DNA from: Heptranchias perlo
Taxonomy: Eukaryota
Reading direction: 5' to 3'
NCBI RefSeq assembly: GCF_035084215.1
Contig: NC_090345.1
Location: 48,608,001 to 48,672,000, forward strand
Length of the DNA stretch: 64,000 nt
Under the pieces are notes generated by a model that was given only the letters and a program-made list of their open reading frames with translations, was not told where the DNA came from and did no database searches. Below are positions 41,889-58,439 of this stretch, in pieces (position 1 is the stretch's first letter; each line of letters opens with the position of its first letter). The position numbers were made by a program, and so were the translations under genes.

Positions 41889-42502
41889 TGTAGGGAAATG
41901 GTTTACTTCCAGTGATTCATGGACCTGGTCATAGTTCAGACAAAGAAAGACACTCTGACGTGATAGTTTCATTAATCAGTGATTATTTAATGATTTAAGA
42001 AGAGCACATAAGCATGAAGCGACTCAATCAATATGTGCATTACTCTACCCAATTCCTACAAGCAGGCATAAAGCAAAGCAAGCAAGTAACACATACAACC
42101 TTTATAAAGCATCAAAGCAGCCGTCTAGGTCTCGAAGTAAGGTGTCGATTGCTGCGGTGATTGATGCGTCGAATGATGTGTCGAGTTTCATTATCTGCTC
42201 ATCAAGGTTTGTCTTCTCATCACAGTTCTTTGTCTTCTCATCGAGGTTTCTCTCTTTATCAAAGTTCAGAAGTAAAGTATTGAAGTGCTCATTGATGGAG
42301 GAGCTCACACCGCAGTAATTGTTCAACTGTTCCTCCTGCAACTGTTGACTGTCGAAGCTGCTACGATGTCCTATCTTTATATGATTCTGAGCAGATAGGG
42401 TGTGATCCAAGTTACGAGACGTTCATCTTGGCCACTCACCCATCGTTGTATTAATGATTGATGGAGAACCATGTGAATCCACTGTATCATCTTCTCCCTA
42501 CA
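41889..42502 (-). repeat. 3' LTR (614 bp, probably internally deleted)
   Basis: Inverted termini TGTAGGGA...TCCCTACA; aligns with 50072-50345 and 55575-55935. Confidence 0.88.
42102..42410 (-). other. Open reading frame inside the 3' LTR (~100 aa, acidic, helical-looking; unknown function)
   Basis: Open in both LTR copies with the same stop position; no in-frame ATG at the annotated start. Confidence 0.4.
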
Positions 42503-42504
42503 GA

Positions 42505-42512
42505 CCCTCCTC
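42505..42512 (-). promoter_or_regulatory. Polypurine tract
   Basis: GAGGAGGG 2 nt upstream of the LTR TGTA, just after the env stop. Confidence 0.75.
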
Positions 42513-42828
42513 AAGTGGATCTGACTAATCTTTTGACCAATCCACTTCATACACCTTGAGCATTGTCCATGGGTGTTAAGTTTTCTTCGTCATTGGTTCA
42601 TGTTCCTGTGTAGGATGGGTTTGCTGTGACATACGCAAAAAGAATATTTCCTTGCCATGCTTGCAGATTAAACGTCACATTACACATAAGCAGATTATCA
42701 TAGTATACATTGCGTTCATTTTAAAGCCATACTAATCATTCTAACCCATGGGTTTTGTCCAACATTATATACTGTCTCCCACCACTCATGAGCACCCAGC
42801 ATGTTTATCGCTTTTTCTAAGCTCTCAT

Positions 42829-53800: not shown

Positions 53801-54109
53801 ACAACTGAGTGGCTTGCTAGGCCATTTCAGAGGGCAATTAAGAATCAACCACATTGCTGTGGGTTTGGAGTCACATATACGCCAGACCGGGTAAGGACGG
53901 CAGGTTTCCTTCCCTAAAGGACATTAGTGAACCAGATGGGTTTTTACGACAATCCGGTAGTTTCATGGCCACCGTTACTGATACTAGTATTTTAATTCTA
54001 GATTTTTTATTTAATTAATTGAATTTAAATTCGCCAGCTGCCATGGCGGGATTTGAACTCATGACTCTGGATTTTAGTCCAGGAACATAACCACTATGCT
54101 ACCGTACCC
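50816..54109 (-). mobile_element. Apparently full-length 3.3-kb LINE (APE + RT, CR1/L2-group) with tRNA-derived head; inactive copy
   Basis: ILTESYL, VGDFNVHH, LDLVLTN, ALDIKAAFD, GVPQGSVLGP; stops at 53376 (YRPP to *RPP) and 51111; catalytic FADD reads FAVD. Confidence 0.93.
54035..54109 (-). promoter_or_regulatory. tRNA-like Pol III promoter head of the LINE
   Basis: A box TAGCATAGTGG (54091-54101) and B box GTTCAAATCC (54049-54058). Confidence 0.8.
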
Positions 54110-55905
54110 TGGGATTGCTGCGGCGATTGCTGCGTCGATTGCTGCGGCGATTGCTGCGTCGATTGCTGCGTCGATTGCTGCGGCGATTGCTGCCTCGATT
54201 GCTGCGGTGATTGCTGCGTCGATTGCTGCCTCGATTGCTGCGGTGATTGCTGCGGTAATTGCTGCGGTGATTGCTGCCTCGATTGCTGCGGTGATTGCTG
54301 CATCGATTGCTGCCTCGATTGCTGCAGTGATTGCTGCGGTGATTGCTGCGGTGATTGCTGCATCGATTGCTGCGGTGATTGCTGCGTCGATTGCTGCGTC
54401 GATTGCTGCGGTGATTGCTGCCTCGATTGCTGCGGTGATTGCTGCCTCGATTTCTGCGTCGATTGCTGCAGTGATTGCTGCCTCGATTGCTGCATCGATT
54501 GCTGCGTCGATTGCTGCGGTGATTGCTGCCTCGATTGCTGCGGTGATTGCTGCCTCGATTGCTGCGTCGATTGCTGCGGTGATTGCTGCGTCGATTGCTG
54601 CGTCGATTGCTGCGTTGATTGCTGCGGTAATTGCTGCGTCGATTGCTGCGTCGATTGCTGCGGTGATTGCTGCGTCGATTGCTGCGTCGATTGCTGCGTC
54701 GTTTGCTGCGGTGATTGCTGCCTCGATTGCTGCGGTGATTGCTGCCTCGATTGCTGCGGTGATTGCTGCCTCGATTGCTGCGGTGATTGCTGCGGTGATT
54801 GCTGCGTCGATTGCGGCGGTGATTGCTGCGGTGATTGCTGCGTCGATTGCTGCGTCGATTGCTGCGTCGTTTGCTGCGGTGATTGCTGCCTCGATTGCTG
54901 CGTCGATTGCTGCGGTGATTGCTGCCTCGATTGCTGCGGTGATTGCTGCGTCGATTGCTGCGTCGATGGCTGCGTCGATTGCTGCGGTGATTGCTGCGTC
55001 GATTGCTGCGTCGATTGCTGCGTCGTTTGCTGCGGTGATTGCTGCCTCGATTGCTGCGTCGATTGCTGCGGTGATTGCTGCCTCGATTGCTGCGTCGATT
55101 GCTGCGGTGATTGCTGCGTCGATTGCTGCGTCGATTGCTGCGTCGATGGCTGCGTCGATTGCTGCGTCGATTGCTGCGTCGATTGCTGCGTCGATTGCTG
55201 CGGTGATTGCTGCGTCGATTGCTGCGGTGATTGCTGCGTCGTTTGCAGCGGTGATTGCTGCGGTGATTGCTGCGTCGATTGCTGCGGTGATTGCTGCGGT
55301 GATTGCTGCGTCGATTGCTGCGGTGATTGCTGCGTCGTTTGCAGCGGTGATTGCTGCGGTGATTGCTGCGTCGATTGCTGCGGTGATTGCTGCGTCGATT
55401 GCTGCGTCGATAGCTGCGTCGATAGCTGCGTCGATTGCTGCGGTGATTGCTGCGTCGATTGCTGCGGTGATCGCTGCGTCGATTGCTGCGGTGATTGCTG
55501 CGTCGATTGCTGCGGTGATTGCTGCGTCGATTGCTGCGGTGATTGCTGCTTCGATTGCTGCCTCGATTGCTGCGTCGATTGCTTCGTCGAATGAAGTGTC
55601 GAGTTTCATTATCTGCTCATCAAGGTTTGTCTTCTCATCAAAGTTCTTTGTCTTCTCATTGAGGTTTTTCTCTTCGTCAAAGTTCAGAAGCAAAGTATTG
55701 AAGTGCTCATTGATGGAGGAGCTCACACCGCAGTAATTGTTCAACTGTTCCTCCTGCAACTGTTGATTGTTGAAACTGTTACAATGTCCTATCTTTATAT
55801 GATTCTGAGCGAATAGGGTGTGATCCAAGTTACGAGCAGTGCCATCTTGGCCACTCACCCATCGTTGTATTAATGATTGATGGTTGGTTGGACCACTCGA
55901 GAATC

Positions 55906-58037
55906 GTGTGAATCCACTGTATCAACTTCTCCCTGTGAATCCACTGTATCTACTTCTCCCTGTGAATCCACTGTATCTACTTCTCTGTGTGAATCCACTG
56001 TATCTACTTCTCCCTGTGAATCCACTGTATCTACTTCTCCCTTATGAATCCACTGTATCTACTTCTCCCTGTGAATCCACTGTATCTACTTCTCTGTGTG
56101 AATCCACTGTATCCACTTCTCCCTGTGAACCCACTGTATCTTCTCCCTGTGAATCCACTGTATCTTCTTCTCCCTGTGAATCCACTGTATCTACTTCTCC
56201 CTGTAAATCCACTGTATCTACTTCTCCCTGTGAATCCACTGTATCTTCTTCTCCCTGTGAATCCACTGTATCTACTTCTCCCTGTGAATCCACTGTATCT
56301 ACTTCTCTGTGTGAATCCACTGTATCTACTTCTCCCTGTGAATCCACTGTATCTACTTCTCCCTTATGAATCCACTGTATCTACTTCTCCCTTATGAATC
56401 CACTGTATCTACTTCTCCCTGTGAATCCACTGTATCTACTTCTCCCTGTGAATCCACTGTATCTACTTCTCCCTGTGAATCCACTGTATCTACTTCTCCC
56501 TGTGAATCCACTGTATCTACTTCTCCCTGTGAATCCACTGTATCTACTTCTCCCTGTGAATCCACTGTATCTACTTCTCCCTGTGAATCCACTGTATCTA
56601 CTTCTCCCTGTGAATCCACTGTATCTACTTCTCCCTGTGAATCCACTGTATCTACTTCTCCCTGTGAATCCACTGTATCTACTTCTCTGTGTGAATCCAC
56701 TGTATCAACTTCTCCCTGTGAATCCACTGTATCTACTTCTCTGTGTGAATCCACTGTATCTACTTCTCCCTGTGAATCCACTGTATCAACTTCTCCCTGT
56801 GAATCCTCTGTATCTACTTCTCCCTGTGAATCCACTGTATCTACTTCTCTGTGTGAATCCACTGTATCTACTTCTCCCTGTGAATCCACTGTATCTACTT
56901 CTCCCTGTGAATCCACTGTATCTACTTCTCTGTGTGAATCCACTGTATCCACTTCTCCCTGTGAACCCACTGTATCTTCTCCCTGTGAATCCACTGTATC
57001 TTCTTCTCCCTGTGAATCCACTGTATCTACTTCTCCCTGTGAATCCACTGTATCTTCTTCTCCCTGTGAATCCACTGTATCTACTTCTCCCTGTGAATCC
57101 ACTGTATCTACTTCTCCCTGTGAATCCACTGTATCTACTTCTCTGTGTGAATCCACTGTATCAACTTCTCCCTGTGAATCCACTGTATCTACTTCTCCCT
57201 GTGAATCCACTGTATCTACTTCTCCGTGTGAATCCACTGTATCTACTTCTCTGTGTGAATCCACTGTATCTACTTCTCTGTGTGAATCCACTGTATCTAC
57301 TTCTCCCTGTGAATCCACTGTATCTTCTTCTCCGTGTGAATCCACTGTATCTACTTCTCCCTGTGAATCCACTGTATCTTCTTCTCCCTGTGAATCCACT
57401 GTATCTACTTCTCCCTGTGAATCCACTGTATCTTCTCTGTGTGAATCCACTGTATCTACTTCTCCCTGTGAATCCACTGTATCTTCTTCTCCGTGTGAAT
57501 CCACTGTATCTACTTCTCCCTGTGAATCCACTGTATCTACTTCTCCCTGTGAATCCACTGTATCTACTTCTCCCTGTGAATCCACTGTATCTACTTCTCC
57601 CTGTGAATCCACTGTATCTTCTTCTCCCTGTGAATCCACTGTATCAACTTCTCCCTGTGAATCCACTGTATCTACTTCTCCCTGTGAATCCACTGTATCT
57701 TCTTCTCCCTGTGAATCCACTGTATCTTCTTCTCCCTGTGAATCCACTGTATCTTCTTCTCCCTGTGAATCCACTGTATCTACTTCTCCCTGTGAATCCA
57801 CTGTATCTACTTCTCCCTGTGAATCCACTGTATCTACTTCTCCCTGTGAATCCACTGTATCTTCTTCTCCCTGTGAATCCACTGTATCTACTTCTCCCTG
57901 TGAATCCACTGTATCTACTTCTCCCTGTGAATCCACTGTATCTACTTCTCCCTGTGAATCCACTGTATCTACTTCTCCGTGTGAATCCACTGTATCGACT
58001 TCTCCCTGTGAATCCACTGTATCTACTTCTCCCTGTG
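55906..58037. repeat. 27-bp minisatellite (GTGAATCCACTGTATCTACTTCTCCCT)n, ~79 copies, inside the 5' LTR
   Basis: Unit read directly; single copy in the 3' LTR at ~42473-42499. Confidence 0.98.
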
Positions 58038-58439
58038 AGTCCAGGTGCATTTTAAGGAGCTGTTTTGTTTTGAGAACGGACGTTATTAGAGCCTTCTCGA
58101 AGCTTCCCTACAGCTGTCGTCTTATCAGTTGTTTGTCCTTTGCAATTGTTGTATGACCTGAAGACCAGTTTAAACTCTCTCGAAGCTTCTCGAAGTTGAT
58201 TACATCTTCTGTCTTTCATGCTTATCAGTTGTTATTGAAAACCGCAGCTTCTGGAAGTTTTGTACTTTGCTGCTTTCGCAGTTTTAAACTGATGTCCAAA
58301 TGTCCAGTTTTGAACTGCATGCACTTTGCAGGTTTGAATTTATACTGTCCAAATTTCCAAATGTTCCAGGGGCAAGTTAACCCTTGCTTTCACACGTACT
58401 GTCCAAGTGAATGTCCAAAGCCTTAAAGGGACTCATTAA

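Follow-up and report, generated by a model that had tools for sequence, protein, structure and literature searches.

Does a retroviral envelope that resembles the F proteins of paramyxoviruses and pneumoviruses mark its carrier as a lokiretrovirus? The question is raised by 64,000 nucleotides from the shark Heptranchias perlo (contig NC_090345.1, positions 48,608,001 to 48,672,000; hereafter the window), which hold a minus-strand provirus from 41889 to about 58483 (G000:C24; 3.25-Gb genome). A first-pass annotation had read it as lokiretrovirus-like, either a chondrichthyan member or a new env-bearing lineage, citing its RNase H, integrase, primer binding site (PBS) and envelope (Env). Sequence comparison does not support the Loki label for this family. 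The provirus is probably a dead copy, lacking reverse transcriptase (RT), of a multi-copy shark endogenous retrovirus (ERV) family. Within Retroviridae, the RT-bearing siblings likely fall in the snakehead retrovirus (SnRV)-like grade, and the family Env is a predicted fusion protein of F-type (class Ib). The family is likely a member of the SnRV-like grade already reported from chondrichthyans.

As the window copy lacks RT, which the first-pass annotation had also observed, its placement rests on siblings. An env query of the genome gave 64 matches (the best 40 scored of 116 candidates), the longer ones 75–89% identical. Queries with the long terminal repeat (LTR) and the gag side gave 764 and 1200 candidates respectively, with the best 40 scored in each. 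RT-bearing copies were sought in the same genome and found, with RT present in four of the 20 env-bearing copies fetched. These copies differ in their LTR; gag, which carries a CCHC-type motif, runs into pro and is followed by protease, RT, tether, and RNase H, and the PBS matches tRNA-Arg(CCT). A cluster of 84 matches to the 3' end of this tRNA lies at G000:C11:6.47-8.12 Mb. Eight queries were scanned against Pfam, of which four lay in uninformative frames and were disregarded. The siblings contain a tether and second RNase H (PF17919/PF17917 followed by PF00075, the latter at E 3e-12 in one copy), a trait common to all retroviruses. Target duplications are 4 bp in four of the six siblings with both ends found and partial in two.

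The RT and tether of sibling L039 returned 25 protein matches, the best being 'NYNRIN-like' pols of frog, coelacanth, and Xenopus at 45–50%; identity to Loki-like pol was 33%. Phylogenies of RT were built with 88 and 40 rows, with OWN_L028 (piece out of frame) and P0042 (identical to SnRV) left out of the latter. The Loki references are nine fish pols, labelled by eye using the Loki-Lch integrase motif published in the supplement of PMC7947760. SnRV is represented by L041, assigned from its 10,688 nt and layout (length per PMC12193657). Foamy references came from a primer scan, one being confirmed by PF03408, and a primer scan aimed at epsilonretroviruses yielded one unrelated contig only. The remaining retroviral genus labels are those we take to apply from size and motifs.

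The trees give the published order of gypsy, Loki, foamy, then the remainder. The siblings lie in this last group, where they share an open grade with SnRV and with pols of amphibians, coelacanth, turtle, and ostrich. A 97/88 branch places their RTs with Retroviridae, not within the Loki clade. In approximately unbiased (AU) tests, forcing the siblings with Loki was rejected (p-AU 0.014), as was forcing them with canonical foamy viruses (p 0.022), and a grouping with SnRV plus P0009 was not rejected (p 0.24). Membership of Ty3/gypsy was considered and rejected, with a 100/100 branch separating the Metaviridae RTs and the siblings carrying dual RNase H.

The Env was characterised through its relatives. 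A single-frame piece searched against 1.84 billion proteins found three matches (shark, frog, and a repeat artefact), none Loki-like. The nearest relative, which points to a shark host, is P0134 of the bamboo shark Chiloscyllium punctatum (739 aa; 48%, E 1e-32), to which the window env aligns piecewise at 33–49% across residues 92–697. The frog match, P0136 (Pelodytes ibericus KAM8960540.1, 723 aa, unbroken), was found at 31% and E 2e-9, and is of the same Env type at 28–31% identity. A word-index search with an env piece found none among 942 candidates. The window env has a basic cleavage site near 44050, which is RKRR in siblings, followed by a fusion-peptide-like stretch, a heptad region, and a Cys-rich ectodomain. 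The first-pass annotation had described the cleavage site, fusion peptide, and Cys-containing ectodomain correctly, except that it placed the cleavage site early; it lies ~270–290 residues into Env. Its remark that no gamma-type CX6CC is obvious agrees with three unbroken relatives (L123, P0134, and P0136), none of which contains the motif.

Resemblance to F was examined by several methods. PF00523 matched one of four sibling env pieces (E 6e-4, below the Pfam cut-off), and Pfam found no match on the window env fragments. A family profile against the PDB had a single match, F0, at E 0.3, and the ESM Atlas scored the family Env as Fusion_gly at 0.93. For a structure model of P0134, Foldseek ranks 1–13 were all paramyxo/pneumovirus F or foamy Env, in agreement with BFVD, as were 10 of the top 11 rows in VIA. 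In the latter, Newcastle disease virus F aligned with Z 8.0 and a root-mean-square deviation (rmsd) of 24.7 over 161 residues, and foamy Env, the second match, with Z 7.2 and rmsd 3.4 over 122, the lowest rmsd among full-length fusion proteins. The family Env is therefore predicted to be F-type by four methods that agree although each is weak. This upholds the F likeness proposed from the letters, with the qualification that foamy Env shares the top structural ranks. A three-row model with L123 first had a mean predicted local distance difference test (pLDDT) score of 30, and a PDB profile search of the same alignment gave no F match. Walleye dermal sarcoma virus Env was also among the fold matches (E 4e-3). 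Weak signs of an Ig-like surface domain were observed (V-set E 0.013, antibody chains E 0.05–0.6, and a UniRef name) in a region that is unfolded in the model.

F-likeness extends beyond this family. The transmembrane (TM) region of SnRV (L041:6131-9532) also scores as F-type in the ESM Atlas, at 0.90; a literature search found no statement that the Env of this grade is F-type. Foamy Env has an F-like fold as well (PMC11468914), hence F-likeness is not diagnostic of Loki.

Several points weigh against the placement in the SnRV-like grade with an F-type Env. The env tests are each weak, with the Pfam match below cut-off, a mean pLDDT of 50, and TM-scores of 0.10–0.15, and the structure model is of the cousin P0134, not of the window env. 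The family profile matched the SnRV TM with a probability of 5%. The window copy contributes no RT, and its link to the siblings is 77–88% DNA identity over RNase H, integrase, and env. Branching within the SnRV-like grade is weak and no branch joins the siblings to SnRV itself. In the integrase tree the copies sit away from SnRV, in a weakly supported 90/91 group with Loki. The Loki labels are by-eye motif calls, not published Loki sequences. Finally, the labelled fish and frog foamy-like ERVs (CmiFLERV, XtrFLERV, and the ray-finned FLERVs) are absent from both trees; the Xenopus pol P0008 may itself be XtrFLERV.

This last point bears on whether the family instead represents foamy-like ERVs of chondrichthyans, akin to CmiFLERV/XtrFLERV or to CFEFV, with an Env related to that of foamy viruses. 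Such an origin would account for the Lys primer in the window, the position of foamy Env in VIA, and the best PDB match of the RT, which is foamy PR-RT, nearly tied with others. According to PMC5512871, FLERVs of frog and shark make up a clade for which pol alone is known, and the siblings lie near a Xenopus pol. It is nonetheless unlikely, as the grouping with canonical foamy RTs was rejected and the RT-bearing copies have a CCHC-type gag motif, a gag running into pro, and an Arg primer. The foamy Env domain PF03408 gave no match (a control foamy Env scored 1648 bits), and P0134 and P0136 had no significant match to foamy Env open reading frames (ORFs; best E 0.15).

The proposal of a first chondrichthyan lokiretrovirus is largely refuted and now very improbable. 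It drew on an F-type env with RXKR, the tether and RNase H, and the integrase, and the Loki paper had screened only three chondrichthyan genomes, with none positive (PMC7947760). The integrase tree unites the window's integrase with those of its siblings (100/99). They fall in an open 90/91 group along with Loki and other vertebrate ERV integrases, which explains the resemblance first recorded, but not inside the Loki clade. The RT evidence opposes the proposal in both the AU test and identity, 33% to Loki-like pol versus 50% to other ERV pols, and no Loki-like env was among the three matches. Peptide motifs of the top pol matches are absent from 300 of the 318 pages of the Loki supplement (PMC7947760), and a literature search found no Loki report from sharks. 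The disagreement between integrase and RT trees on closeness to Loki could instead reflect recombination, with a Loki-like or non-retroviral F donor having supplied an SnRV-grade pol with its env and possibly with its integrase as well. Domain exchange within these groups is on record (PMC7947760), and the RT-less subfamily itself switched LTR and primer. However, the pairing of this env type with this RT grade occurs in two families of the genome, the env type recurs in a frog protein, and the SnRV TM also scores F-type. Old inheritance is the simpler account, and recombination is considered quite improbable. The SnRV-like grade with a predicted F-type Env is retained as the probable placement.

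Within the window, viral coding accounts for only ~6 kb of the provirus and LINE (long interspersed nuclear element) and minisatellite sequence for ~10 kb of its span. The minus-strand remnants comprise two LTRs, a PBS, a gag stub, RNase H, integrase, and a broken env; capsid, nucleocapsid, protease, RT, and tether are all missing. In 5' to 3' order of the provirus, the features are as follows (TRF, Tandem Repeats Finder).

58044..58483 (minus): first ~440 nt of the 5' LTR, 73–86% identical to LTR starts of siblings; TG start unrecognisable
55907..58043 (minus): 27-nt minisatellite of 79 copies that arose by expansion of a unit within the 5' LTR (TRF and self-blast); 42469-42499 in the 3' LTR matches one unit
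55563..55934 (minus): middle unique part of the 5' LTR, 89% to 42145-42499
54113..55590 (minus): right half of a 12/24-nt minisatellite in the 5' LTR (TRF)
50820..54110 (minus): LINE (endonuclease and RT) inserted into the LTR minisatellite; PF00078 E 3e-32 and PF14529 E 3e-11 on 51111-53375
50331..50817 (minus): left half of the 12/24-nt minisatellite (TRF)
50072..50330 (minus): 3' part of the 5' LTR, end ...ACA, 86% to 41896-42184
50052..50069 (minus): PBS of tRNA-Lys(TTT) type, 14/18 bases matching the 3' end of the genome's tRNA-Lys(TTT)
49400..49700 (minus): putative gag N-terminal stub, common to RT-bearing copies at 77–79%
48051..49316 (minus): 1.27-kb stretch with a decayed coiled-coil frame in place of the front half of pol, in RT-less copies and not in RT-bearing ones
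47700..47975 (minus): RNase H remnant, interrupted by a frame break and with ~174 nt deleted in comparison with siblings
46210..47640 (minus): integrase with GPY module, with stops and frame breaks
45886..46082 (minus): env 5' end, a signal-peptide-like hydrophobic stretch (by eye)
44641..45885 (minus): 5'-truncated LINE inside env (PF00078 E 4e-23); siblings are uninterrupted there
42560..44640 (minus): env body, with surface part, basic cleavage site (~44050), fusion peptide, heptads, Cys-rich ectodomain of predicted F-type, and membrane anchor; 33–49% to P0134 piecewise
41889..42500 (minus): 3' LTR without its first ~400 nt, end ...ACA

All features named in the first-pass annotation are borne out by these remnants. 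RNase H has its DGS in frame 0 at ~47960 and SAQAAEL at 47845, split by a frame break, and the integrase, described as gypsy/spuma-like, contains H2C2 (E 5e-14), rve (E 8e-5), and a C-terminal p58/SH3 module carrying GPY. The tRNA-Lys assignment of the PBS likewise holds, with less decayed B-type copies nearer to tRNA-Lys(TTT) than the window's. The proposed span of 41889..58435 was a provirus as stated, with its right end set short, as 5' LTR homology extends to at least 58480. Neither the TG start of the 5' LTR nor the left target-site copy was found at the window element, where a 29-nt array adjoins the LTR. The gag stub has no significant Pfam match, and the env body contains several stops and frame breaks along with a 90-nt LINE-end insert at 42828-42917.

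Self-comparison pairs the LTRs at 41896-42184 with 50079-50371 (86%) and at 42145-42499 with 55563-55934 (89%). The Kimura distance between them is ~0.10 (550 sites), paired-LTR distances of 0.045–0.103 being observed in three sibling copies. This corresponds loosely to ~220 My (million years) at the shark rate assumed in PMC4422223 and ~22 My at a mammalian rate, a spread that leaves the age loose. Two short LTR motifs have grown to kilobase minisatellites in the 5' LTR only (50331-50817, 54113-55590, and 55907-58043), one of which received a LINE. Further minisatellites occupy 1-8632, 29155-29891, 32102-32750, 58484-58939, and 59337-61264 of the window (25-, 29-, 36-, 29-, and 27-nt units, respectively), and 34571-34708 contains a perfect 62-nt inverted repeat. 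At 40500-40622 on the plus strand is an exon that encodes the last part of an I-set Ig domain (E 5e-6), which we take to resemble palladin/myopalladin. The provirus lies antisense just downstream and is probably intronic. The plus-strand stretch at 41797-41880, beside the 3' LTR end, presumably reads like a histone H4 start.

The layout of the window copy is not peculiar to it. The gag side is joined directly to RNase H, with RT absent, in four of the 20 env-bearing copies and in all seven further copies chosen by the gag-side query. As many copies share this RT-less layout, the window copy represents an amplified non-autonomous form. Two RT-less subfamilies (window 48051-49316 and G000 copies L113-L120) share the 1.27-kb coiled-coil-coding stretch that replaces the front half of pol, together with the Lys primer. 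The frame matches the SnRV Gag coiled coil weakly (E 0.014). More than 100 of the best 150 scored RT matches in G000 (~60% identity) have long open frames, therefore younger related families exist in this genome.

In a plausible history, the germ line would first have been colonised by an exogenous virus that carried gag-pro-pol-env and primed from tRNA-Arg. A derivative formed by deletion or recombination, which had a different LTR and primed from tRNA-Lys, would have arisen and may have been copied in trans by helper RT, after which the window copy would have decayed and gathered LINEs and minisatellites. By analogy with the models for F and foamy Env, cleavage at RKRR by furin would release the fusion peptide, and refolding of the heptads would drive membrane merger. 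Receptor binding would fall to the part ahead of the cut, which may be Ig-like.

By itself the window provirus is an ordinary fossil, a dead member of a known grade. A cousin family outside the window provides a further lead. A genome search with P0134 gave 87 matches (the best 61 scored of 4599 candidates), among them locus L123, where an unbroken 759-codon env ORF lies at G000:C6:50325191-50327470 (L123:1480-3759, minus). It covers residues 1-738 of P0134 (GCC29952.1) with no stop at 85% identity, and its Env has RKRR at 287 and one membrane anchor. All 11 sibling env loci examined contain at least three stops or frameshift gaps each. The surroundings of L123 are decayed, with seven stops and several frame changes in the upstream pol pieces, an LTR remnant pair of 200 nt that is 89% alike, and no match to gag. 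Its RT remnant adjoins the window's family in the tree with moderate support (90/59).

Possible signs of constraint at L123 were also observed. The nonsynonymous to synonymous substitution ratio (dN/dS) on its terminal env branch is 0.12–0.18 (pS 0.10–0.12) versus 0.46–1.13 in siblings, and it shares 17 derived residues with P0134 and has 16 private ones, where siblings share 2–11 and have 29–70 private. Counting against domestication, L123 integrase and RNase H are also low (0.37 and 0.40; siblings 0.44–0.77) and the difference between env and integrase is not significant (p 0.34). Against a majority yardstick env gave 0.20, which is downgraded as evidence because the integrase of the same locus gave 0.28. 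Words of the ORF occur in sequencing runs of five coded organisms from seven studies, with shares of 0.72, 0.23, 0.14, 0.07, and 0.07. In run X5 (organism B, a second species), two contigs cover L123 1201-2690 and 2740-3763 with ~4.6% differences and no indel inside the ORF among the rows listed. The second contig leaves L123 at an AG two bases before the ATG and continues with 80 unlike letters, as a spliced leader would, the RNA status of X5 being a guess. The pol side has little X5 cover, which proves nothing alone. No RNA run was listed as holding L123, and its protein had no exact match in the protein collection searched. It is an even call whether sharks have domesticated an F-type retroviral Env of an SnRV-grade virus, with L123 a single, spliced, conserved host gene orthologous to GCC29952.1. 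On sequence grounds L123 env is a candidate domesticated F-type envelope.

A literature search found no report of the L123 env. The vertebrate co-option survey of Wang and Han may list it. A 2026 chondrichthyan syncytin survey of 36 species required an immunosuppressive domain (ISD) and CX6-7C, so that only gamma-type Env were kept and the L123 env could not be; it reports no candidates in placental sharks.

The wider meaning lies in the combination of an F-type Env with an RT inside Retroviridae but outside Loki and foamy viruses, from which it follows that F-likeness does not define Loki. The result favours those scenarios of PMC7947760 that treat an F-type envelope as ancestral, with most orthoretroviruses having since replaced it. 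If the shark domestication reading is true, the retroviral ancestor would have carried the F-type Env common to Loki, foamy, and SnRV-grade viruses. As a candidate captured fusogen of cartilaginous fish, L123 is specific and open to testing, and is of a kind to which gamma-type syncytin screens are blind. Such a gene reopens the question of captured env in placental sharks.

The gecko foamy env and bird Ovex1 are reportedly captured env genes. Like the syncytins, percomORF, and the gamma-type shark candidates of Proudley 2026, L123 combines an unbroken env beside a broken pol with low dN/dS and an ORF unbroken in other species. It differs from captured gamma-type envs in its predicted F-type and lack of ISD or CX6CC, and its function is only putative.

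Foamy viruses and foamy-like ERVs share with the family an F-like Env fold, an extra domain ahead of the furin site, and the Lys primer. The family differs in an RT outside the canonical foamy clade, no PF03408, a CCHC-type gag motif, and an unbroken cousin Env in which only one membrane-spanning segment exceeds the threshold. The family resembles lokiretroviruses (Wang and Han 2021, PMC7947760) in its LTR-gag-pol-env organisation, a dual RNase H, an Env that is F-like and carries RXKR, and the loose integrase group. However, the family RT is inside Retroviridae rather than sister to it, and the search run found no sequence link to Loki Env. Further traits of Loki are an RNase H that groups with foamy viruses and an integrase close to CGIN1. 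Some Loki members carry an smc-like ORF, and the window has a decayed coiled-coil frame with no SMC Pfam match.

The last comparison is with the SnRV clade. SnRV itself differs in that no direct RT sisterhood was seen, the family integrase branches elsewhere, the family Env is shorter (about 740–760 versus 1134 aa in the SnRV stop-to-stop frame), and the window copy is RT-less. SnRV-like ERVs have been reported in the elephant shark as CmiERV lineage I (PMC4422223); for clade Huo, reports span every major vertebrate lineage (PMC6001957). With these the family shares the RT grade, the tether and RNase H, a long non-gamma TM, which scores as F-type in SnRV, and occurrence in chondrichthyans.

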